Shown here in pieces: positions 7,186 to 18,566 of a DNA stretch of 58,737 nucleotides. Within the stretch, counting starts at the first letter, position 1; each line of letters begins with the position of its first letter. Position numbers and translations under genes: made by a program. The DNA is from Bacteroidia bacterium (GTDB lineage: Bacteria > Bacteroidota > Bacteroidia > NS11-12g > UBA955), in assembly GCA_044377005.1 (NCBI GenBank), contig JBILJV010000006.1, positions 1 through 58,737 on the forward strand, in the 5' to 3' direction. The notes below the pieces were generated by a model, which did not search any database, was not told the DNA's origin, and was given only the letters and a program-made list of their open reading frames with translations.

Positions 7186-9372
7186 TTAAAAACTACTTGA
7201 TTTTACCCATTTCACAACAGACACTCCCGACTTGGTTATAAATTTGAAGAAATAAATCCCATCGGGTAATGCTTTTAAATTCAATGTTTGCATTGCGGGA
7301 ATTTGGGAATATTGATTAGAAATCACTTGTTTTCCGCTAGCACTAACTACAACTAATTCTGTCGCTTCATTTGTTGAGAATGACACATATTGTGCTGAGG
7401 GATTTGGAAACACATTTCTTGCATTTAAATCAATATGTTTATCCTTTACCTCAAGAAGTGCAGCATAAGCATTTATTTTACCCCTACCCCATATCAATGA
7501 CCCTGTATCTGCAATTTGACCCGTATGTTTGTCCAATCTTGCTGTATTTTGAATAATTTCTTTTATTTGAGTGTGGTTTAAGTTTGGATTCATTTCGAGC
7601 ATTAGTGCAACTATACCTGCCACAGCTGGACCCGACATAGAAGTTCCTGAAAAAGCCACAAATTGATAACTTTTACCATTAAATTGGGTTGTTTCTGCAA
7701 TTGTTCCGGGATTGGGGTCGAAAGAATTAACTGAGGAAATTACCAATTGCCCGGGACCAGCAATATCAGGTTTTCTTCTTTCATCCACTGTAGGACCATG
7801 GCTTGAAAAATTAGAAATTTGACCATAAAAAGTCAGTCCGTTAGGTAAAGAAACTTCGGAACGGTATGAAGCAACCGTTAAAACATTTTTACCTACACCT
7901 GCTGGTTCTCCTACACCATAAGCTGTATTGCCGGATTTAGTATTTACAAAATCTGCTGTAAAAGGCACTCCCCAATTGGTGTAACGATTAAAAAGTCTTA
8001 CATTGTTCCATACATGCAAATCGCACTGTGAAGAGCTGACTGCTTCAAGCAATAGTTTTAAATTTCCTTTCTTTCTAATATCAACCCGAATGTTAGGTTT
8101 TTGGTTGGTAACAAATGAATTGGTAATTGTAAATCGCATTTCAATAGAATCGCCATTGCTATTGCCAATTATTTGATTAAAAACAGTGTCTTTCAAACTT
8201 GAAAACCACGAAGAGTTTAGTAAACTTCTTCTTTGATTATTGAGCAGACTAAAGCGAACAGAAAATGAAGAATTTTTAGACCCCCACATTGATAATGTTT
8301 GACCAAAATAGTCGGGCAAAGTTGTAAAATTAACAACCGTTCTAAGAGTATCTGTGTTTGATTTAAAGGCTTGTTGAATATGAAAATTTGCATCGCCATT
8401 ATTTCCAGCAGAACCTACCAAAATTTTACCTTTTCCTGCAAAGGCATCAATACCAATATTTTCAAGAGTTGTGCCATCGTGAGGCCCCAAATGGTTCCCA
8501 AAACTCATGTTTACCACGAATGGTTTATTTACTTTTCGTGAATACTGTTCTATGTAATGATAGGCATCAATTAATGAGGGAGCATCTCTTCTCAAAGAAA
8601 TAAGAATTAAGTCACTTTCGGGAGCCATCCCTATAAGATTTACCCCTGCACCTCCACCAGCAGCTATTCCTGCGACGTGAGTGCCATGCGAACCGGGACC
8701 AAAAACATACAAAGTATCTTGCTGAGCGGTCAATAAATCAGCCTGAGTTTCATAAGCCGTACCAAAATCAAAACCATTTGGAGGAGGACCCGATAATTTA
8801 TTTTGATCCCAAGCCCTTACCACTCTATAACGAGAAAGAGTGCTGTCATAAAACATTGGATGTGTGTAGTCGAACCCCCAATCGATAACGGCAACAACAA
8901 CTCCTTTTCCTGTGTATGCACGCGGCAATGCTCCTAAACCCTTGTGAACACTGTCAACCTTTGTGGTTTTTATCGCATTTTCCAAATCAGGGAACAATGG
9001 GTCACCAATATCAACCAATAAAACACCGTTTAACTGGGCCAAAGATTCCAAAAATTGAACAGGCACTCTTACAGAATAAATATTGCCTTTTTGGTTAAAA
9101 TTAGTAATTCCTTTTGCACCTAACTCATTAGAATTAAACTTAGAAGATTCAACCAATAAAAGGGCTCCAATATAATAAGATTGATTTTTATAATACAAGG
9201 CATATTCATTGATAAGCTGACCATTAGGAACCATATTATTGTTGCGTTTAGCTGGTTTAGATTGTTTTAATTCAAACAAAAAACGCTTGGTAGCAGGAGA
9301 AAATTGAGCTTGAGAAAACAATACTTGAGCACAAGCAAAAACAACAGATACTAAAAGTAGTTTTTTAAACAT
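7186..9372 (-). CDS. S8 subtilisin-like serine peptidase with T9SS type-A C-terminal domain
   Basis: Triad motifs VIDWG, HGTHVAGIAAG and GTSMSGP; CTD VFPNPS...GIYFFK...KWVK; signal peptide from ATG 9372 (track start 9396). Confidence 0.92.
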   Translation of the reverse strand: MFKKLLLVSVVFACAQVLFSQAQFSPATKRFLFELKQSKPAKRNNNMVPNGQLINEYALYYKNQSYYIGALLLVESSKFNSNELGAKGITNFNQKGNIYSVRVPVQFLESLAQLNGVLLVDIGDPLFPDLENAIKTTKVDSVHKGLGALPRAYTGKGVVVAVIDWGFDYTHPMFYDSTLSRYRVVRAWDQNKLSGPPPNGFDFGTAYETQADLLTAQQDTLYVFGPGSHGTHVAGIAAGGGAGVNLIGMAPESDLILISLRRDAPSLIDAYHYIEQYSRKVNKPFVVNMSFGNHLGPHDGTTLENIGIDAFAGKGKILVGSAGNNGDANFHIQQAFKSNTDTLRTVVNFTTLPDYFGQTLSMWGSKNSSFSVRFSLLNNQRRSLLNSSWFSSLKDTVFNQIIGNSNGDSIEMRFTITNSFVTNQKPNIRVDIRKKGNLKLLLEAVSSSQCDLHVWNNVRLFNRYTNWGVPFTADFVNTKSGNTAYGVGEPAGVGKNVLTVASYRSEVSLPNGLTFYGQISNFSSHGPTVDERRKPDIAGPGQLVISSVNSFDPNPGTIAETTQFNGKSYQFVAFSGTSMSGPAVAGIVALMLEMNPNLNHTQIKEIIQNTARLDKHTGQIADTGSLIWGRGKINAYAALLEVKDKHIDLNARNVFPNPSAQYVSFSTNEATELVVVSASGKQVISNQYSQIPAMQTLNLKALPDGIYFFKFITKSGVSVVKWVKSSSF

Positions 9373-9453
9373 AATTGTAAAGTGGTAAAGATACACAAAA
9401 TATAAAAATACAAGAATAGCAAAATATTCAAAGTTGAATGATTAGAAAAAGAG

Positions 9454-9461
9454 TACTTTTG
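9454..9461 (+). promoter_or_regulatory. -7 box (TACTTTTG)
   Basis: Exact TAnnTTTG, 5 nt before GTG 9467. Confidence 0.6.
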
Positions 9462-9466
9462 CGCCC

Positions 9467-10342
9467 GTGAAAATTGACTTAAAAATGTTTTTGACGCTCT
9501 TTTTTTTAGGACTTGTTTGGGGCAGCTCCTTTATCCTAATGAAAAAGGGATTAGTTGCTTTTACACCTTTCCAATTGGCCTCATTAAGACTAGTGTTTGC
9601 TGGTAGTGTAGGCGCCTATTTCTTTGTTAGAGAATTTAGTAAACTAAGTAAAAAAGATTGGTTGTTTTTAAGTTTATCAGGGATACTAGGAAACTTAATT
9701 CCTGCTTATCTATTTGCGAGTGCAGGAGCTGAAATCCCAAGTTCTTTATCGGGAGCATTGAATGCAATGACGCCATTTTTTGCACTATTAACAGGAGTTT
9801 TTTTGTTTTCACAACTTTTTAAGGTATCTCAAGCCATAGGAATAATAATTGGTTTAGCAGGTTCATTGCTTCTTATATTTTCTAAAACTAAAGATGGGTT
9901 TCAGTTTGAAATAGATTATTTGATTCCATGTTCTAAAGTTATTTTAGCAGCTTTTTTATATGGCATCAATGTTAATATTATCAAATCAAAATTAAGCCAC
10001 AATACTGCTATTGTAAATAGCATGATTCCCTTAAGTATTGTTTCAATTCCGGCATTAATAATAGCATTACAGACAGGTGCATTTAATGTGGCAATGCAAG
10101 AAGAATCTCTTAAACCACTTTTATATATATTTTTATTAGGCGTAATTGGTTCAGCCATTTCACTCATTGTTTTTAACACATTAGTTAAAAAAACGACTGC
10201 TATTTTTGCGGCTTCTGTCACTTATCTAATACCTATATTCGCTTATTTTTGGGGTATTTTGGATGGTGAACCAATTGGTTTATTTCAGGTATCAGGTATG
10301 TTATTAATTTTACTAGGAATTACATTAGCGCGTAGATCATGA
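9467..10342 (+). CDS. DMT/EamA family transporter
   Basis: WGSSF start motif, about 10 TM helices in two repeats, YLIPIFA..WG. Confidence 0.9.
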   Translation: MKIDLKMFLTLFFLGLVWGSSFILMKKGLVAFTPFQLASLRLVFAGSVGAYFFVREFSKLSKKDWLFLSLSGILGNLIPAYLFASAGAEIPSSLSGALNAMTPFFALLTGVFLFSQLFKVSQAIGIIIGLAGSLLLIFSKTKDGFQFEIDYLIPCSKVILAAFLYGINVNIIKSKLSHNTAIVNSMIPLSIVSIPALIIALQTGAFNVAMQEESLKPLLYIFLLGVIGSAISLIVFNTLVKKTTAIFAASVTYLIPIFAYFWGILDGEPIGLFQVSGMLLILLGITLARRS

Positions 10343-11688
10343 TTCAATTACCTAATGGTTTTAAACAAAGATTACGCCATCAATTGGGTGAACAAGCATA
10401 TATAGAATTTGAAGCATCTCTAAACAAAGAAACTCCAGTTTCTTTAAGAATAAATAAAAAGAAGTTAAATACTGAACTAAATTACTCAAAAGTAAATTGG
10501 TGTTCTACAGGCTATTATTTGCCTGAGCGACCTTTATTTGTATCTGACCCACTTTGGCATGCAGGGGCATATTATGTTCAAGAAGCTTCGAGTATGGTTT
10601 TAGAACAAGCCTTTAATAAAATTATAGAACTCAATGATAAAGACTTAAAAGTTTTAGATTTATGTGCTGCACCTGGAGGAAAATCGACTCATCTATCTTC
10701 ATTACTCAAAGATAATGATATTTTACTAAGTAATGAAGTTATCCAAACAAGGGTTCCAGTTTTAAAAGAAAATTTATTGAAATGGGGATTTCCCAATACC
10801 ATAATTTGTAACAATGATAGTCGTGATTTTTCACAACTTGGCGAAATATTTGATATTGTAGTTGTAGATGCACCTTGTAGTGGTGAAGGCTTATTTAGAA
10901 AAGACCCACATGCTACAGAGCAATGGACAGAAGATAATGTAACAACTTGTGAATTAAGGCAGAAAAGAATATTGCAAGAGGTTATTAATTGCGTTAAAAA
11001 GGGTGGATTTATTATATACAGTACATGCACCTATAACCCAGGAGAAAACCAAGCTCAAGTTGAATATTTAACAACAAAAGGCTTTCAAACTGTTCCATTT
11101 TCATTTGCAGGGAAATTAGAAAGTTCATACCAATTAATGCCACATACCCATCAAGGTGAAGGGTTTTTTATTGCATTACTACAAAAAATAGAGACTCATA
11201 CTGAGGGATCAATAGAGCGAGATGAAACCCAAATAAAGACAGAAAAGTTGGGTATTGAGTGGAAAAAATTAATGAACGTCGATATTGAATTTATTAAATT
11301 TAGAAATGAAATGACGGCTGTAAAACCACCTTTATTAGATTTTTACAAGACAATTTCAAAACAATTAAAAATAGTTCAATTAGGCACGAGTGTTGGGACA
11401 CAAAATCAACAACTGATGATTCCATCTGGTGAACTTGTTTTTTCACAACATTTTAATATTGAGTATTGGCCAAGTATAGAACTAACGATAGAACAAGCTT
11501 TGCTATATATAAGTAAACAAACAATTCCTTATTCCAGTTCAAACAAGGGTTATGTAACCTTAACTTATAAAAACATTCCAATTGGTTTAGGAAAATTTGC
11601 AGGGAATAGAATTAATAATTTATTTCCGAATGAATGGCGTTTAAGAAAACAGATAAAACAAGAAGAAATTTTTACTATTTTACCTTAA
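10339..11688 (+). CDS. RsmB/RsmF-family RNA (cytosine-C5) methyltransferase
   Basis: YYVQEASSM, VLDLCAAPGGKS, VDAPCSGEG, YSTCT; RsmF-type C-terminal domain. Confidence 0.92.
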   Translation: MIQLPNGFKQRLRHQLGEQAYIEFEASLNKETPVSLRINKKKLNTELNYSKVNWCSTGYYLPERPLFVSDPLWHAGAYYVQEASSMVLEQAFNKIIELNDKDLKVLDLCAAPGGKSTHLSSLLKDNDILLSNEVIQTRVPVLKENLLKWGFPNTIICNNDSRDFSQLGEIFDIVVVDAPCSGEGLFRKDPHATEQWTEDNVTTCELRQKRILQEVINCVKKGGFIIYSTCTYNPGENQAQVEYLTTKGFQTVPFSFAGKLESSYQLMPHTHQGEGFFIALLQKIETHTEGSIERDETQIKTEKLGIEWKKLMNVDIEFIKFRNEMTAVKPPLLDFYKTISKQLKIVQLGTSVGTQNQQLMIPSGELVFSQHFNIEYWPSIELTIEQALLYISKQTIPYSSSNKGYVTLTYKNIPIGLGKFAGNRINNLFPNEWRLRKQIKQEEIFTILP

Positions 11689-11963
11689 ATATTCTGTTAT
11701 TAATATACAGAATTAATAAGATAATGGATTCATAAAATAAACAAACTATGCTGTTTGATAGTACAATTGTATTGTTTTTGTATTAATAAATATTAAAATA
11801 TTATTCATTCGTAAAACAATGGTATTTCAATTATTAATTATAACTTATTGAATATATGATAATTAATATAAAATATAGTAGTGATATCTCAAAATAATTC
11901 TATATTAACATATAAATACTCAAATTTTTATTAAATTTAATTAAAAATAAGTACAATAAGCAT

Positions 11964-11971
11964 TATGTTTG
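11964..11971 (+). promoter_or_regulatory. -7 box (TATGTTTG)
   Basis: Exact TAnnTTTG upstream of ATG 12007, at the end of a roughly 300-bp extremely AT-rich spacer. Confidence 0.5.
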
Positions 11972-12006
11972 TAATCACAATATAACACAAATTTCCTTAA
12001 ACGTGT

Positions 12007-13179
12007 ATGTTTAGTAACGAAAGTATTAATTTAGAGATATTAAAAGAGAGAGCTTATAATTTAAGATGGGCCACTCATAACGAGGGAGTTATTCCACTAA
12101 CGGCTGCTGATCCCGATTTTCCATGTGCACCTGAAATAAGTGAAGCCATACAAAAATATGCAAAAGAGCGTTATTTTTCTTATTCACCTGTTGAAGGGAT
12201 CCCTAAGTTTCGTGAAGCTGTAGCTCGTTATTATTTAAACAAAAGACAAGTTGATATTCACCCAAAAAATGTTTTAGCTGTAAACAGTGCTGCCTATGGC
12301 TTGTATGCTGTATGTAAAACATTTCTAACTTTAGGTGATGAAGCTATTGTTTTTAATCCTTGTGATTTTTTATTTGCCCATTCTGTTAGAGCTGCAAATG
12401 GCAAAGTTGTCCCCTTTTCTATTCCTTTAAATCCTAATGAAAATTTGGACATTAATGCATTAAAATCTTTAATCAACAAACAAACAAAACTGATTTGCAT
12501 TTGCAACCCTATTAATCCAACGGGTAGAGTTCTCAACAGTTATGAATTAAAGCAAATTGGCGAACTCGCTGTTACTCACAATCTCATTATTTTATCAGAT
12601 GAGATATGGAGTGACATTGTTTTTGAACCATTTCAGTACAAAAGTATTGCTTCTATAAATGAGGCAATTAAAAATCAAACAATTATTGTAACGGGTTACA
12701 GCAAATCATATGGATTAGCTGGACTAAGAGTAGGTAGTGTTATAGCACCAAATGAAGCTTTATTTACCAAAATACTAAATGAATCGGAGCACAACTCAAC
12801 TGTAAATGGTTGTAATGTATTGGCTCAAGTTGCGGTTATTAGCGCCTTAAATGAATGTGACTATTGGTTAACTTCATTTATTGAACATTTAAGCAAAATG
12901 AGAAATTTGTGTGTTAATGAACTCAATTTAATAAAAGGAATTCATTGCAATGCACCACAAGGTTGTTATTTGGCATTTCCCAATATCAGTGAAACAGGAC
13001 TGAATGAAACACAAGTCCATCAATTGCTGCTCGAGAAAGCGCATGTAGCTATTGTTCCGGGATTAAGCAAATGGTTTGGAGAAAGAGCGCAAGGTCACAT
13101 TAGATTAAGTTTTGCAACTTCTGAAAAAATATTAACAGAAGCTTTACAAAGGATACAATTTACATTCAAACAATTATGA
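12007..13179 (+). CDS. PLP-dependent class I/II aminotransferase, MalY/PatB (C-S lyase)-like
   Basis: IPLTAADPDF (cf. PatB LPMWVADMDF), CNPINPTG, SDEIW, Schiff-base lysine in YSKSYGLAGLR, IRLSFA. Confidence 0.88.
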   Translation: MFSNESINLEILKERAYNLRWATHNEGVIPLTAADPDFPCAPEISEAIQKYAKERYFSYSPVEGIPKFREAVARYYLNKRQVDIHPKNVLAVNSAAYGLYAVCKTFLTLGDEAIVFNPCDFLFAHSVRAANGKVVPFSIPLNPNENLDINALKSLINKQTKLICICNPINPTGRVLNSYELKQIGELAVTHNLIILSDEIWSDIVFEPFQYKSIASINEAIKNQTIIVTGYSKSYGLAGLRVGSVIAPNEALFTKILNESEHNSTVNGCNVLAQVAVISALNECDYWLTSFIEHLSKMRNLCVNELNLIKGIHCNAPQGCYLAFPNISETGLNETQVHQLLLEKAHVAIVPGLSKWFGERAQGHIRLSFATSEKILTEALQRIQFTFKQL

Positions 13180-15110
13180 AAGTGGTTATTATTGGAGGCG
13201 GAATTGCTGGATTAACATTAGGTGTTTTTTTACATCAAAATGGGCATAATATTTCCATAAATGAACGCAGTCATAAAAACCAACGCAATGGTCATGCTTT
13301 TTTACTTCATCCAGATGCAATGGATATTTTACAAAAGCTATCTTTAACAAATCAGAAAATTGAATTTCCCGGTCAAATTATTGATGAAATCAGACTAAAT
13401 AAGGCTGACAATAATGCATTATTGCAACGTACAGATTTAGAATCATGGATTTGTATGAAAAGATGTGATATCCTTAACTTCATCAATCATTTTTTACCAC
13501 AGGATACCATTCAATTTGACCGCAATTATAAAAATTTTATATACAAAAATAACCGTGTTGTTGCTGTTGAATTTGAGAATGGTGACATTGAATATGGCGA
13601 CGTTTTTATTGGTGCAGATGGAGTAAAGTCAAAAGTACGAAATAGTCTTTTTGGTGAGGTTGAATTTTCTAAAACCGAAGTTAGAGAAATTGTAGGCATT
13701 ATCAAAAACGCTGACATAACTCAAAAATCACCAAATACTTTTACTAAAATAAACTGCTTACAACAAGGTATTGCTTTTGGCTATATTCCATGTTCAAATG
13801 ATGAGATGGTTTGGTATATCCAATACGATGTTAGGTTACAAAAAGCTGAATTTGACGGGCCAGAATCTATAAAAAATCACTGTTTATCATTATTAGAACA
13901 ATTTCCTGATGAAGTTCGTAACCTTTTGTCATTTAATGATTTTTCAAAGAATTTTTTATGGCAATCTACAGATTTTGATTTGTTACCTATCTTTCACAAA
14001 GACAATGTTGTTCTTATTGGAGATGCAGCACATGTCGCTTTACCATTTACAAGTGCTGGCACTACCAATGCACTTATTGATGCTTATACATTGTCCCATC
14101 TACTTCAACAAAATCCTACCATTACTGGAGCATTTAATCAGTTTTATGAGACAAGAGCGCCAAGAATCAAAGAACATATTTCACTGGGAAGGGAAATTAA
14201 AAATAATTTTTTAGACAATACTAACCAAACTGTTAAAACTCCTCTTATCCAAAATCTTAAAAAAGAGGAGGAAATCAATGTTAACTCTAAAATAGAAATT
14301 TCATACTTCACAGACCCTGTTTGCTCAACCTGCTGGATAGTTCAACCTCAATTGAGAAAATTGTCCTTAAAATATGGTGAGTACTTTGAAGTAAAATATC
14401 TGTTGGGCGGTCTTCTTCCGAGTTGGGACGAGTTAAAAGGCAAAATGGGACGCATTAAACAACCGTCTGATGCGGCTGACTATTGGGAAGAGGTTTCTAA
14501 ATCACAAAAAATGCCATTGTCTCCAGATATTTGGATCAATTCTCCTTTGTCTTCGTCATTTCCACCCTCAATAAGTATTAAGGCTGCACAAATGCAAAAT
14601 AAATTAAAAGCCTACCAATTTCATAGAAGGATTAAAGAGCTTTTATTTTTGGAAAGCAAAAACATTACAGATATTGAATTGCTTTTACATACGGCAGAGG
14701 AAGTTGGTTTAGATGTCATTAAACTTAAAGAGGATATGAAATTAAATGCAATTAAAAAATTCAATGAAGACCTTGAATATGCCTCTGAACTCAAAATTCA
14801 TACGCTTCCAACCTTTATCTTTAAAAATGAATTTGGTGCTGAAAAAACTTTAAAGGGATATCAAGAATACGAAGTTTTGGAAAAAGCTATACTTGATTTA
14901 AATCCATTAGCTGTTAAAAACAATACCAAACGTCAACCTATTGAGTTATTTAATATTTACCCAAGCATGACTGCTCATGAGTTTTCATATCTTTTAGAAA
15001 TCAATATCCTTGAAGCTGAGAATATCCTAATAAACCTAGAGCACTCAGGAATTGTAGGTAAAAAGAAAAACAAGTCTGGAGATATTTGGAAATTAAAATT
15101 TAAAAATTAG
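13176..15110 (+). CDS. Fusion: group A FAD-dependent monooxygenase + DsbA/YjbH(SpxH)-like CxxC thioredoxin-fold domain
   Basis: N-terminal GGGIAG, IGADG and LIGDAAH..P..SAG motifs; after a linker FTDPVCSTCW...QLRKL, SSFPPSISIKAA and cis-Pro motif TLPT; short helical C-terminal domain. ATGA overlap with the upstream gene. Confidence 0.85.
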   Translation: MKVVIIGGGIAGLTLGVFLHQNGHNISINERSHKNQRNGHAFLLHPDAMDILQKLSLTNQKIEFPGQIIDEIRLNKADNNALLQRTDLESWICMKRCDILNFINHFLPQDTIQFDRNYKNFIYKNNRVVAVEFENGDIEYGDVFIGADGVKSKVRNSLFGEVEFSKTEVREIVGIIKNADITQKSPNTFTKINCLQQGIAFGYIPCSNDEMVWYIQYDVRLQKAEFDGPESIKNHCLSLLEQFPDEVRNLLSFNDFSKNFLWQSTDFDLLPIFHKDNVVLIGDAAHVALPFTSAGTTNALIDAYTLSHLLQQNPTITGAFNQFYETRAPRIKEHISLGREIKNNFLDNTNQTVKTPLIQNLKKEEEINVNSKIEISYFTDPVCSTCWIVQPQLRKLSLKYGEYFEVKYLLGGLLPSWDELKGKMGRIKQPSDAADYWEEVSKSQKMPLSPDIWINSPLSSSFPPSISIKAAQMQNKLKAYQFHRRIKELLFLESKNITDIELLLHTAEEVGLDVIKLKEDMKLNAIKKFNEDLEYASELKIHTLPTFIFKNEFGAEKTLKGYQEYEVLEKAILDLNPLAVKNNTKRQPIELFNIYPSMTAHEFSYLLEINILEAENILINLEHSGIVGKKKNKSGDIWKLKFKN

Positions 15111-16384
15111 TATTTTAATGGCAATGTAATGCTGAATTCAGAACCTTTGTTTAAGGCACTTGAATAAGCAATAGTTCCATTTAACAATTCTACAAACTGT
15201 TTTACAATAGTTAAACCCAATCCTGTTCCTACTATTCCTATTACATTTGAAGCTCTGAAAAAACTTTCAAATAAATGCACTTGTTCATCTTCTGGAATTC
15301 CTATACCTTGGTCAATAATTGAAATTTTAATTTCAGATGAAAATGGTTCAACAATCAAATTAACTGTAGAATTCTCCGCTGAATATTTTAAAGCATTATC
15401 AAGTAAATTAGATATTACGTGGGTTAAAATTTGTGAGTCACTATTAATATCTAATGGAGTATTAGGCATTTTTAAAACGATGCGATTGGATTCTAATTTC
15501 TTTGAATAATATTCGTTAAGGAAATTAGTTATAAATAATGAAAGTGAAAAAAGAGAAGGATTAAAAGTATACTTTCCTAAAGATTGTTTTTCTAAAATTA
15601 AAGTGTCATTTAACAAAATTACCATTCTGTTAATTTCCTTTTTAATTCTATTAATGTGTTTTTCGTATTTCTCTGCAAGTTTCAAATTAGGTATTTCACT
15701 AATGTACATTTCCATTAATTCTGTACTTCCTGAAATGGTAGAAAGGGGTGTTCTAAACTCGTGAGAAGCGGTTGTCACAAAACGAGACTTTAACTTATTT
15801 ACCTCCTTTTCAGAATTTAATGCTGCCTTCAATCGGTTATTTGCCATCTGAACTTCAGCCTGTTGCTTTTGCATAGCAATTACATTTCCTATTGTAGAGG
15901 CAAGTACTAATAAAGCATCCTGCTGACTTTCAGTGAAAGTATCATCTGATTGACAATTATCAAAACCAACCCATCCCCAAAATAATTCATTAGAATAAAT
16001 AGGAACAAATAATACTGCTTTTATATCTTGCGATTGAAGCGTTTCTCTAAAAAAATCATCCTTTATGTCTTTTACTATTGCACTGTATGTTTTTCTTTCT
16101 AACATAACCAAATGCAAATCGGCAAAAATTGACCAAGGTAAATCTTGTAATTCAGGATTATCTAGCTGTATACTTATGTTCTCTTTGGTCCACTCATATC
16201 TTTGTGAAAAAATTTCTTCATTATCACTGTTTTGAAAATTTTGAAAAATATAAACCCTGTCAACATCTGTTGCTTTGCCCAAAATACCCAATACATTAGT
16301 TATGGAACTTTCCAAACTATTGTTACTTGACAAAGTAAAATAAGCCTGACCAAGTGCATTTAATATTTTTTCACTTCTTTTCAT
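15107..16384 (-). CDS. Cytoplasmic GAF-domain sensor histidine kinase
   Basis: GAF (DVDRVYIF...WGWVGFD), H-box ASHEFRTPL, N-box NLLDNALKYS, DQGIGI, FFRASN, GTGLGL; no TM segment. Start moved to ATG 16384. Confidence 0.92.
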   Translation of the reverse strand: MKRSEKILNALGQAYFTLSSNNSLESSITNVLGILGKATDVDRVYIFQNFQNSDNEEIFSQRYEWTKENISIQLDNPELQDLPWSIFADLHLVMLERKTYSAIVKDIKDDFFRETLQSQDIKAVLFVPIYSNELFWGWVGFDNCQSDDTFTESQQDALLVLASTIGNVIAMQKQQAEVQMANNRLKAALNSEKEVNKLKSRFVTTASHEFRTPLSTISGSTELMEMYISEIPNLKLAEKYEKHINRIKKEINRMVILLNDTLILEKQSLGKYTFNPSLFSLSLFITNFLNEYYSKKLESNRIVLKMPNTPLDINSDSQILTHVISNLLDNALKYSAENSTVNLIVEPFSSEIKISIIDQGIGIPEDEQVHLFESFFRASNVIGIVGTGLGLTIVKQFVELLNGTIAYSSALNKGSEFSITLPLKY

Positions 16385-16392
16385 TGAATGCA

Positions 16393-16400
16393 CAAAACTA
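16393..16400 (-). promoter_or_regulatory. -7 box (TAGTTTTG)
   Basis: Exact TAnnTTTG, 8 nt before ATG 16384. Confidence 0.55.
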
Positions 16401-16445
16401 ACACAATTTAATTTACAAATTAATTGAAAGCAAAATAAATATTAA

Positions 16446-18566
16446 CTATGCTATTTTACTACCCGGACTTATAGCAGTGCCTCCCGGTTGCATTAGCTTA
16501 AGTGAACCATCTTCATTTTCAGCAAGTAACAGCATTCCATTACTTTCTATCCCTTTAATTTTTCGTGGCGCCAAATTCGCTAATACACAAACTTGTTGCC
16601 CTATTAATTCACTTGGTGTAAAATGTAAAGCTATCCCCGAAACTATAGTGCGTTGCTCAAAACCTAAATCTACTTTTAATTTTAATAATTTATCTGCTTT
16701 CTCAACTTTTTCTGCTTCCAATATTATACCTACTCTTAAATCAATTTTACTGAAATCATCAAAAGAAATCAATGGTTTTAATTCAGATTGAGATACTTCT
16801 TTTGTTTCTAAAACTGAAGCTGCAATCATTGTTTTTGACTCTTCTAAATACTTTACTTGTTTTTGAATAATATCATCTTCTATATTACTGAATAAATGGG
16901 CTGATTGACCTAATGTGTGTCCTGATTGTAATTGAACAAAGCTATTATTCACATAATTTTCTTTTTGTATATTCAATTGGTTTCTTAATTTTTGAGAAGA
17001 AAAAGGCATGAATGCATCCATCCACCAAGACAAGGTAGCACATACTTGAATGGCATTAAACAAAACTGTTGCCGTTCTTGTTTCGTCTGTTTTAACCAAT
17101 TTCCAAGGCTCCATTTCTGCCAAGTATTTATTTCCAGCACGAGCTATATTCATCAGTGCAAACAATCCGTCTCTGAATTTAAAATGACGTATAGAATGGT
17201 CTATTTCCTCTTGGAATAACTGAATATCCTTTATTAATTGTTGGTCTATTTCTAACAAATTACTTGCAACAGGCACTACCCCTTCATAATATTTATGAGA
17301 CAGTACCATCACTCTGTTTATAAAATTGCCTAAAATTGCAACCAATTCACTGTTATTTCTGGTTTGAAAATCTTTCCAACTAAAGTCTGCATCTTTGGTT
17401 TCTGGTGCTATAGCTGTTAAAACATATCTCAGTACATCTTCTTTGTTTTCAAATTCCTTGAAATAATCTTCCATTTCCACACTCCACTTTCTGCTAGTAC
17501 TCATTTTCTCACCCTCTAAATTTAAAAATTCATTAGCAGGAACATTGTCAGGCAAAATGTAGGATTCTGCAGCCTTTAACATTGTTGGAAAAATAATACA
17601 ATGAAACACGATATTGTCTTTTCCAATAAAATGTATCAAGCGACTGTCATCATTTTGCCACCACTTTTTCCAATCATTAGCTAGTCCACTTTTAATCATT
17701 GAATTTTGTGGGTATGCATAATGAAATGATTTTTCTTCCATTTCTTTGAAAAAAGCTTTAGTAGCAGAAATATACCCAATAGGGGCATCAAACCATACAT
17801 ACAACACTTTTCCTTCAGCACCTTTGATTGGCACTTTTACACCCCAATCAAGATCACGAGTCATGGCACGAGGAGACAAACCGCCATCAATCCAGCTTTT
17901 ACTTTGTCCATAGACATTGGTTTTCCAATCGTCTTTATGTCCTTCGAGTAACCATTCTTTCAACCATGATTCATATTCATTTAATGGCAAATACCAATGT
18001 TTAGTGGTTTTTAAAACAGGGGTTTTATCAGAAAGTGTAGAAACAGGATTAATTAATTCATTTGGGCTTAAAGCTTTACCACACTTTTCGCATTGATCGC
18101 CATACGCACTATGAAAACCACAATTGGGACATGTCCCTTTGATGTATCTGTCTGCTAAAAAGGTTTGTTTTTCTTCGTCGAAATACTGTTCCGAAACCTC
18201 TTCTTTAAACAAGCCTTTTTCATATAGATTTAAGAAAAACTCTTGAGCAGTTTGGTGATGTATTTCGTCACTTGTACGATGATAGACATCGAATGATATA
18301 CCAAGCTTCTCAAAATTTTCTTTTAATAAATGATGGTATCTGTCAATAATATGTTGTGGGCTTGTATTTTCTTTTTGAGCTTGAATAGGGATTGCAGTTC
18401 CATGTTCATCACTTCCACATACAAATAATACTTCTTCTCCCGCATTTCTTAAATAACGGGTATAAATATCAGCAGGAATATAGGCACCAGCCAAATGACC
18501 AATATGTTTAGGGCCATTTGCATATGGCAAAGCCGCTGTCACAAGGGTTCTTTTAAAAGACTTCAT
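16446..18566 (-). CDS. metG: Methionyl-tRNA synthetase with C-terminal tRNA-binding domain
   Basis: ALPYANGPKHIGH, Zn knuckle CPNC...CEKC, YVWFDAPIGY, IGKDN, KMSTS, C-terminal OB fold DLRVG...ESNGM. ATG 18566 preferred over 18578. Confidence 0.97.
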   Translation of the reverse strand: MKSFKRTLVTAALPYANGPKHIGHLAGAYIPADIYTRYLRNAGEEVLFVCGSDEHGTAIPIQAQKENTSPQHIIDRYHHLLKENFEKLGISFDVYHRTSDEIHHQTAQEFFLNLYEKGLFKEEVSEQYFDEEKQTFLADRYIKGTCPNCGFHSAYGDQCEKCGKALSPNELINPVSTLSDKTPVLKTTKHWYLPLNEYESWLKEWLLEGHKDDWKTNVYGQSKSWIDGGLSPRAMTRDLDWGVKVPIKGAEGKVLYVWFDAPIGYISATKAFFKEMEEKSFHYAYPQNSMIKSGLANDWKKWWQNDDSRLIHFIGKDNIVFHCIIFPTMLKAAESYILPDNVPANEFLNLEGEKMSTSRKWSVEMEDYFKEFENKEDVLRYVLTAIAPETKDADFSWKDFQTRNNSELVAILGNFINRVMVLSHKYYEGVVPVASNLLEIDQQLIKDIQLFQEEIDHSIRHFKFRDGLFALMNIARAGNKYLAEMEPWKLVKTDETRTATVLFNAIQVCATLSWWMDAFMPFSSQKLRNQLNIQKENYVNNSFVQLQSGHTLGQSAHLFSNIEDDIIQKQVKYLEESKTMIAASVLETKEVSQSELKPLISFDDFSKIDLRVGIILEAEKVEKADKLLKLKVDLGFEQRTIVSGIALHFTPSELIGQQVCVLANLAPRKIKGIESNGMLLLAENEDGSLKLMQPGGTAISPGSKIA

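Follow-up and report, generated by a model that had tools for sequence, protein, structure and literature searches.

A Bacteroidota protein family that joins a flavoprotein monooxygenase to a YjbH-like thiol module

YjbH, also known as SpxH, is a cytoplasmic protein that has been studied so far only as a proteolysis adaptor of Firmicutes, where it serves ClpXP as the adaptor for Spx. The YjbH proteins of Bacillus, Geobacillus, Staphylococcus, and Listeria stand alone, are ~270-300 amino acids (aa) long, and are composed of three parts: a thioredoxin/DsbA-like fold, an alpha-helical insert, plus a winged helix. The same three parts form the C-terminal half of the 644-aa protein described here, where they are located behind a 346-aa flavoprotein monooxygenase. 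This protein is encoded on the forward strand at 13176..15110 of a 58,737-nucleotide (nt) stretch of DNA from Bacteroidia bacterium (assembly GCA_044377005.1, contig JBILJV010000006.1, positions 1 to 58,737), referred to below as the window. It belongs to a real, conserved, and uncharacterized enzyme family. Public databases already contain the fused proteins, named only 'DsbA family protein'.

The cysteines of YjbH are described in PMC7253607 as varying among Firmicutes, with an SXXC motif in S. aureus, and as dispensable for Spx degradation in both B. subtilis and S. aureus. The same paper reports that the CXXC of L. monocytogenes YjbH is required for protein-protein interactions, and it treats the chemical activity of the YjbH thioredoxin motif as an open point in the YjbH literature (PMC7253607).

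Group A (PHBH-fold) monooxygenases include the urate hydroxylase HpxO, PhzS, NicC, PqsL, TetX, and the salicylate and 3-hydroxybenzoate hydroxylases. They share with the protein described here a single-component fold that uses flavin adenine dinucleotide (FAD) and NAD(P)H, together with its fingerprints. Unlike them, this family has its own cysteine in a WxCxKR motif and a second at C236, is coupled to a pyridoxal 5'-phosphate (PLP)-dependent enzyme, and carries a thiol-redox domain. The DsbA-like proteins of the Thioredoxin_5/COG3531 type (3KZQ, which is VP2116, and 2IN3) are members of the same Pfam family as the thiol module and have a CSxC-type site, but are unfused. VP2116 matches the module at E 8e-11 and has the motif CSWC. 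In QSOX, VKOR-thioredoxin, and methionine sulfoxide reductase-thioredoxin fusions, a CxxC thioredoxin-fold domain is flexibly linked to the redox enzyme that it serves. The tether design of these fusions is shared here, whereas the catalytic partner differs; we know of no tethered-thioredoxin fusion with a group A hydroxylase as its catalytic partner.

The preliminary description of this locus, made from the sequence alone, left room for the architecture having been characterized already. No description of the monooxygenase-YjbH-like arrangement was found in the literature searched, which covered few subscription journals. The 'YjbH domain-containing proteins' of Bacteroides (PMC10434189) seem to us to be a different matter: they probably take their name from E. 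coli YjbH, an unrelated protein.

The fused protein and its spread

The fusion gene is one unbroken open reading frame (ORF) of 644 aa that begins with ATG. Its features are:

13176..15110, + strand: fusion gene, 644-aa flavin monooxygenase::YjbH-like protein (single ORF and Pfam)
13176..14213, + strand: group A flavoprotein monooxygenase domain, aa 1-346 (Pfam)
13194-13211, 13617-13622, and 14019-14033, + strand: FAD fingerprints GxGxxG, DG, and GDAAH
14214..14291, + strand: polar linker of varying length, aa 347-372 (alignment gapped and unconserved)
14292..14900, + strand: DsbA-like thioredoxin fold and helical insertion, aa 373-575 (Thioredoxin_5, E 1.6e-44; alignment to YjbH 6GHB)
14322-14333, + strand: CSTC, C383-S384-T385-C386
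14805-14813, + strand: putative cis-Pro loop L544-P545-T546, in the thioredoxin-fold part
14937..15095, + strand: C-terminal winged-helix domain as in YjbH, aa 588-640 (model secondary structure, YjbH alignment, and superposition on 6GHO_B)

Three Pfam models match the protein above their gathering scores. FAD_binding_3 covers aa 2-310 (77.4 bits vs a cut-off of 22, E 1.5e-21), Thioredoxin_5 covers aa 377-569 (152.3 bits vs 27, E 1.6e-44), and DSBA covers aa 375-572 (34.1 bits vs 25.6). In alignments of 20 and 89 sequences, the flavin fingerprints G7/G9/G12, D148-G149, and G282-D283 show no variation or a conservation of 90% or more, and SSFPPSISIKAA (aa 459-470) and LPT (aa 544-546) are likewise present and conserved. 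The preliminary description had placed all of these correctly, from the single frame and its three FAD fingerprints to the CSTC and the two later motifs. Its domain assignment, a flavin monooxygenase followed by a YjbH/SpxH-like DsbA fold and a winged helix, is fully supported by Pfam, by alignment to Protein Data Bank (PDB) entries, and by the structural model. It was also right that there is no signal peptide: in sequence and model, the protein starts with the Rossmann beta-alpha-beta unit that belongs to the flavin domain. Judged in this way, the thiol domain is internal to a cytoplasmic protein and is without the periplasmic export of a classical DsbA.

By sequence and model, the N-terminal half is a genuine member of the group A flavoprotein monooxygenases, and oxygenation is its predicted reaction. 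Its best structural match is HpxO (3RP8), with a template modeling (TM) score of 0.83 (by target) and a root-mean-square deviation (rmsd) of 2.4 A. PhzS, NicC, TetX (tetracycline destructases), and PqsL follow with TM scores of 0.79-0.81 (by target). Identity to the solved members is 17-23% by structural superposition, and the best sequence matches in the PDB have E values of 1e-16 to 1e-11. The two family-specific cysteines are kept with and without the thiol module: C93, the cysteine of WxCxKR, in 98% of the enzymes with the module and 99% of those lacking it, and C236 in 92% and 96%, respectively. The monooxygenase alignment holds no column that tells fused from unfused enzymes.

The junction between the two halves is intact in independent data. 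The preliminary description had considered a misassembly or the loss of a stop codon in a single genome, and had pointed to read coverage of 14200-14300 as the place to look. Contigs from independent lake-water metagenomes cross this region with 0 differences (X4, 14043-14697; X5, 13766-14401; X6, 13858-14457). The pieces from a further run, X7, end at 14281 and resume at 14311; the junction is bridged in three of the four runs. These contigs exclude both kinds of artefact, as do the homologues and genome loci that follow, with both domains in all 120 listed homologues and a complete fusion in 77 of the 80 best loci. The probability that remains for an artefact is negligible.

The fused form is found well beyond the window. 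A search of 5.8 billion proteins gave 1,744 matches at E <= 0.001 among 8,000 scored candidates, and all 120 homologues among the matches listed are 635-658 aa long, carry both Pfam domains, and are 44-92% identical. Named homologues called 'DsbA family protein' come from Bacteroidia, Pedobacter, Flectobacillus, Flavipsychrobacter, Puia, and Emticicia. A scan of species-representative genomes found 388 stretches that encode a relative, and the genome-locus counts given here refer to the best 80 of these 388. The full fused ORF is present in 77 of the 80, while two are cut by a contig end and one (L020) is broken. The monooxygenase occurs at E <= 1e-50 in 9 of 401 genomes sampled evenly from the class, and 13 of 401 genomes sampled evenly from the phylum encode a sequence that matches the YjbH-like part strongly (E <= 4e-61). 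Among 201 genomes from the family of genome G319, two encode a monooxygenase orthologue, with no unfused example between them. The fused architecture is widespread yet patchy, and it extends across several orders of Bacteroidota. The earlier statement that such proteins are normally stand-alone is only partly right: it holds for the YjbH of Firmicutes, and among Bacteroidota the fused form is common.

Two observations concern individual genomes in this set. The broken ORF, L020:6001-7931, belongs to an 86% identical relative in which an apparent frameshift inside the thiol domain leaves pieces of 475 aa and 155 aa; the locus is one base shorter than its neighbors, through either a sequencing error or decay to a pseudogene. 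Some fusion-bearing metagenome-assembled genomes (L008, L010, L058, and L079) are titled Bifidobacterium, Methylacidiphilales, Balneolales, or Vulcanococcus, and several freshwater bins with the fusion are titled 'Chitinophaga pinensis'. These titles look like mis-binning or mislabeling and not like a broader taxonomic range.

The YjbH-like module and its mobility

The C-terminal half is a YjbH homologue by fold and by sequence. Fusion residues 365-644 (positions 4-275 of 280) align to residues 22-291 of the 298-aa Geobacillus kaustophilus YjbH (PDB 6GHB/6GHO) at E 1.6e-38. An AlphaFold model of the whole protein, built with 89 homologues, has a mean predicted local distance difference test (pLDDT) score of 90.2 and a predicted TM score (pTM) of 0.60. 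In this model, the C-terminal half superposes on chain B of 6GHO with a TM score of 0.91 (by target) and an rmsd of 2.4 A over 277 columns, at 29% identity. The motif block around CxxC and the SSxxPS..KAA.MQ stretch are shared. The differences are in the site, which is CPEC in the Geobacillus chain and CSTC here, and in the host phylum, which is Firmicutes for YjbH and Bacteroidota for the fusion. The tail that had been called a possible winged helix is a real one, as judged from the end-to-end YjbH alignment and from the model, in which it consists of helices 588-594, 600-607, and 611-623 and strands 627-632 and 635-640. The module is not filed as SpxH: no cognate Spx was found in the window's genome, and the module is not stand-alone.

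The winged helix was also considered as a DNA binder, which would make the protein a 'trigger enzyme'. We consider this unlikely, as its third helix is acidic and its basic residues are not conserved.

The dithiol is strongly conserved. C383-S-T-C386 opens helix 384-403 in the model, and P545-T546, of the putative cis-Pro loop, line up with the IPT of YjbH. All 89 sequences of the alignment share C383, S384, C386, W387, P545, and T546. Of 128 fused homologues, 126 have CSTC; the other two have CSAC and CCTC, the latter in a reverse fusion described below, and there is one further CSTS variant besides. Since CSTC is near-invariant here, whereas the cysteines of Firmicutes YjbH vary and are dispensable in B. 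subtilis and S. aureus, though needed in Listeria, thiol chemistry seems to be under selection in the fused family. The preliminary description had offered a redox-gated oxygenase, a proteolysis-gated oxygenase, and a built-in dithiol as functional readings. The built-in dithiol is favored because CSTC is kept in 126 of 128 homologues and because neither of the two cysteines nor the cis-Pro loop varies in the 89-sequence alignment.

The two halves appear to be held together loosely. Linker residues 362-370 have pLDDT values below 50 in the model and are predicted to be disordered. When aa 1-352 and aa 370-644 were docked computationally with the 89-row alignment, both ipSAE interface scores were 0.00, and the program's verdict was 'no answer', which speaks neither for nor against an interface. 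The lack of a fusion-specific column in the monooxygenase, the disordered linker, and the pTM of 0.60 together point to a helper on a loose tether and not to a regulatory lid that docks onto the enzyme.

Monooxygenases of the same family also occur without the module. The unfused orthologues are ~366 aa long and 42-52% identical, which is as close as fused ones from other clades. In a FastTree phylogeny built from 241 monooxygenase domains, 20 changes between the fused and the unfused state are required. Well-supported branches force at least 14 of these, and there are two large unfused clades; some branches in this tree are long, and the change count is rough. The unfused loci retain the PLP gene and the kinase and receiver genes that are described in the next section. 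Among the 13 unfused loci for which 3 kb or more of downstream sequence is available, only one has a separate YjbH-like gene. In loci L103 and L179, the PLP gene and an unfused monooxygenase gene are followed, ~380 nt away, by a convergent stand-alone Thioredoxin_5 gene. Locus L177 has the fusion plus an extra stand-alone Thioredoxin_5 gene.

The reverse domain order exists as well. L107:619-2598 (genome G662) encodes a 659-aa protein in which the YjbH-like part and winged helix occupy aa 15-280 and the monooxygenase occupies aa 296-628. Its motif is CCTC. A receiver-domain gene precedes it, and an orthologous PLP gene, 42% identical over its full length, follows it. This form is conserved in 5 protein clusters, the relatives of the L107 protein being P0248-P0250 and P0252. 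From the sequences, the YjbH-like part has been joined to the monooxygenase twice, independently, and in opposite orders. Opposite orders need separate fusion events, which argues that the functional link between the two halves is real. By the same sequence comparison, the module is an accessory that has been recruited more than once and is dispensable or replaceable.

Stand-alone relatives of the module are also found in Bacteroidota. They are 39-43% identical to it across its whole length, winged helix included, and 10 of 11 have CSSC. No monooxygenase or PLP gene lies within ~6 kb of them. At E <= 1e-10, a monooxygenase is absent from four of the five genomes that encode them, and the fifth has only a 29% identical match. 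In place of PLP and monooxygenase genes, they are found beside HxlR, MerR, SDR, or DoxX genes, with an HxlR regulator adjoining 3 of 6 inspected loci. Such surroundings are of the thiol- or electrophile-stress type. The stand-alone relatives (L087-L096, e.g., L087:5881-6804) also have an extra conserved N-terminal cysteine pair, NPLxCDxxTGxC. Together with CSSC, this pair could form a four-cysteine metal or redox site. Several of them would gain a signal- or lipoprotein-like peptide if translation began at an in-frame start further upstream.

The genome of the window (2.49 Mb, 96.4% complete) was searched for the partners that a Bacillus-type adaptor would use. ClpX is encoded on contig C24 (TIGR00382, 557 bits vs a cut-off of 370.75). 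The ArsC/Spx family (PF03960) gave 0 matches in this genome, while control genomes, including B. subtilis, were positive in the same search. No second Thioredoxin_5 gene was found in it. With ClpX present but no ArsC/Spx-family protein, the classical Spx-adaptor role does not fit. The 'proteolysis-gated' reading, which was borrowed from Bacillus, finds no support in these searches.

The PLP partner and the proposed pathway

The gene upstream of the fusion encodes the second enzyme of the locus, and a kinase gene converges on the fusion from downstream:

12007..13179, + strand: PLP-dependent class I/II aminotransferase-fold enzyme, 390 aa (Pfam Aminotran_1_2, E 1.4e-55)
15107..16393, - strand: GAF-HisKA-HATPase histidine kinase, context only (Pfam)

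The stop codon of the PLP gene overlaps the start of the fusion gene by 4 nt, and the gap between the PLP and monooxygenase genes is -4 nt in 41 of 72 loci. Immediately upstream, and in the same orientation, a PLP orthologue is found at 71 of 77 fused genome loci, as well as at 40 of 45 fused and 20 of 26 unfused metagenome loci, or 60 of the 71 metagenome loci with a complete monooxygenase ORF. Loci without it are mostly at contig ends. The conserved core of the locus consists of the PLP enzyme and, translationally coupled behind it, the monooxygenase; the YjbH-like module is accessory to this core. For the PLP enzyme, only the fold class (Aminotran_1_2) can be assigned from sequence, as the scores for a transaminase and for a C-S/beta-lyase are about equal. 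Its NCBIfam matches are all under their cut-offs (PatB C-S lyase, 223.5 bits vs 340; GntC, 222.4 vs 415; PRK07682, 219.6 vs 620), and its best PDB match is 1DJU, an archaeal aromatic aminotransferase (E 5.7e-48). In the Chitinophagaceae-type loci L037, L060, and L062, a gene for a metallo-beta-lactamase-fold protein of 281-294 aa replaces the PLP gene upstream of the fusion.

Many loci also carry signaling genes. A receiver-only response regulator precedes the PLP gene in 57 of 112 loci with enough upstream sequence, and a GAF/PAS histidine kinase usually lies before it. In the three sets of loci with room for these genes, the kinase and receiver-only genes are present in 26 of 67, 18 of 30, and 13 of 15, the last being unfused monooxygenases. 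A four-gene operon of kinase, receiver-only regulator, PLP enzyme, and monooxygenase, fused or unfused, recurs in L110-L124, L178, and L031:2427-7938. No DNA-binding output domain is encoded in this operon, and no LOV-type flavin-cysteine motif was seen by eye in the PAS domain of its kinase. The kinase/receiver pair is absent from the loci of the window's own clade. The receiver-only protein gave no match at E <= 1e-5 in the window's genome, and an empty answer of such a search shows nothing. The PLP enzyme upstream and the kinase and receiver genes of relatives are the most informative part of the context, and the preliminary description had missed them.

From the gene order and the conserved sites, we infer the following chemistry, including its substrate class and the target of the dithiol. 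The fusion would be a cytoplasmic redox enzyme with two modules, and it would catalyze the second step in a small-molecule pathway encoded by two genes. In the first step, the coupled PLP enzyme would transform an amino-acid-type substrate, by transamination or as a C-S/beta-lyase. The monooxygenase would then oxygenate the electron-rich product, which is probably aromatic or N-heteroaromatic, with NAD(P)H, FAD, and O2. The CSTC module could act in one of two ways. It might reduce or trap a reactive oxidized product of the quinone, quinone-imine, or sulfenate type, or it might re-reduce C93 and C236 of the monooxygenase after uncoupled peroxide formation. In either case, the module would then be recycled by the cellular thioredoxin system. 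Its likely origin would be a general cytoplasmic dithiol oxidoreductase of the phylum that was hitched to a particular oxygenase. A role in kynurenine metabolism, suggested by the name that one source gives the Emticicia homologue, is neither supported nor excluded: the match to kynurenine monooxygenase is only 1e-4, and the upstream PLP enzyme matches kynurenine aminotransferase at E 1.8e-22 and aromatic aminotransferase at 5.7e-48.

The best reading of the fusion, and one that we give about an even chance of being correct, is a flexibly tethered dithiol oxidoreductase that serves this pathway of a PLP enzyme and a flavin enzyme and is not an Spx/ClpXP adaptor. A number of points weigh against it. 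The monooxygenase misses every NCBIfam equivalog cut-off (HpxO, 125 bits vs 500; PRK06753, 143 vs 365), so no substrate can be transferred to it, and the PLP enzyme scores alike as an aminotransferase, a C-S lyase, and a GntC-like enzyme, below the curated cut-offs in each case. A large unfused clade does its work with no YjbH-like gene close by; the pathway therefore cannot depend on the dithiol for an obligatory catalytic step. The AlphaFold model, which the preliminary description had suggested as a check for a domain interface, does not place the two domains relative to each other with confidence (pTM 0.60). In each of five other genomes with the fusion there are two generic ArsC-family genes, not adjacent to the fusion, which limits the argument from a missing Spx-type partner to the window's genome. 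The HxlR/DoxX context of the stand-alone relatives is drawn from 6 inspected loci. Finally, the frequency of the kinase and receiver-only genes (57 of 112 loci) hints at a signaling role outside this explanation.

The YjbH-like part could instead be a regulatory module, either a redox or aggregation switch or a ClpXP adaptor or degron, that would set the amount or activity of the monooxygenase or of a partner such as the PLP enzyme or the receiver. Some single-domain receivers, among them CpdR and RssB, serve as adaptors of ClpXP, and a kinase and a receiver-only protein lie upstream of the enzymes in many loci. The whole YjbH architecture is retained, winged helix included, ClpX is present, and the L. 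monocytogenes protein needs its CXXC for protein-protein interactions (PMC7253607). We nevertheless regard regulation as unlikely. An Spx/ArsC-family protein was not found in the window's genome, and the near-absolute conservation of the cysteines and cis-Pro suits catalysis better than a Bacillus-type adaptor. The kinase/receiver pair is equally frequent with unfused monooxygenases (13 of 15) and absent from the window's clade, which links it to the enzyme pair and not to the YjbH-like part. The thiol module has also been gained, lost, and swapped end for end in the manner of an accessory enzyme domain. Another possibility is that the two halves have separate jobs in one stress or metabolic response and were joined for co-expression, with no direct hand-over, as in a loose Rosetta-stone fusion. 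No docking is evident (pTM 0.60), the monooxygenase has no fusion-specific changes, the module has been lost repeatedly, and its stand-alone relatives work in genomes that lack the monooxygenase. Fusions that arose twice, independently and in opposite orders, and the neighboring split forms are hard to explain without a direct functional link, however, and across several Bacteroidota orders the fused arrangement is still kept at identities as low as 43%, so that we hold such a fusion to be decidedly unlikely.

An electron relay in the style of QSOX or VKOR-thioredoxin would have the flavin and CSTC exchange electrons, perhaps through C93 and C236, and act as a disulfide machine for external thiols. 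The flexible tether between a flavoenzyme and a CxxC thioredoxin-fold domain is of this design, the flavin domain has two conserved cysteines, and a Pseudomonadota look-alike that combines FAD_binding_3, DsbC_N, and Thioredoxin_2 offers a lead only. Yet C93 and C236 are just as conserved in unfused forms without a nearby YjbH-like partner. The fold and motifs are those of the NAD(P)H-dependent group A hydroxylases (HpxO, PhzS, NicC, and TetX), which to our knowledge use no flavin-proximal disulfide. The PLP partner is also without a role in this scheme, and we consider a relay very unlikely. A broader idea, equally much a long shot, is that the YjbH fold was at its root a substrate-specific dithiol partner of oxygen-activating enzymes, with the Spx adaptor of Firmicutes derived from it, and that CSTC helps to make or quench a reactive, oxidized metabolite that the PLP enzyme and the monooxygenase derive from an amino acid and that is sensed by the co-encoded GAF/PAS kinase and receiver-only regulator. 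If true, the locus would be a self-contained system for the synthesis and sensing of a redox signal, of an undescribed kind.

The complete fold, the strong selection on the dithiol, the two opposite-order fusions, and the lack of an Spx-type protein in the window's genome make the chemistry of the YjbH fold directly testable, and the fused family allows this on a soluble enzyme. The loci also define a widespread, unannotated pair of a PLP enzyme and a flavin enzyme, present in several soil and freshwater orders of Bacteroidota and often under two-component control, that would mark a new Bacteroidota pathway.

Look-alike fusions and other neighboring sequences

Two clusters in the Atlas resemble the architectures described above, and both are leads only. 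One combines Aminotran_1_2 with FAD_binding_3 in 778 aa and has 176 members, mostly from Acidobacteriota. The other is the Pseudomonadota cluster of FAD_binding_3, DsbC_N, and Thioredoxin_2 (644 aa), to which the Atlas gives a high score. If confirmed, other phyla would also have fused forms of both the PLP-monooxygenase and the monooxygenase-thiol pairing.

The convergent kinase at 15107..16393 (-) is probably outside the module. Its stop codon and that of the fusion gene overlap by 4 nt. With only 24% identity over the kinase core, it was not accepted as the orthologue of the operon kinase of relatives, and it is not kept at this position in the closest loci; L001, for example, has an HHH_3 gene there. 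A scan of 11400-16600 found 0 terminator sites, and so none between the fusion gene and this kinase. Promoter-like sites in 11400-16600 number 25, against a shuffle mean of 26.8, and are not enriched. Positions 9000-17000, scanned against Rfam at E <= 1, yielded 0 matches, and the 318-nt AT-rich leader provides no riboswitch clue to the metabolite. Elsewhere in the window, and in keeping with its origin from Bacteroidota, 7186-9396 (-) encodes a subtilase (Peptidase_S8) with a Por_Secre_tail, the C-terminal sorting domain of type IX secretion.

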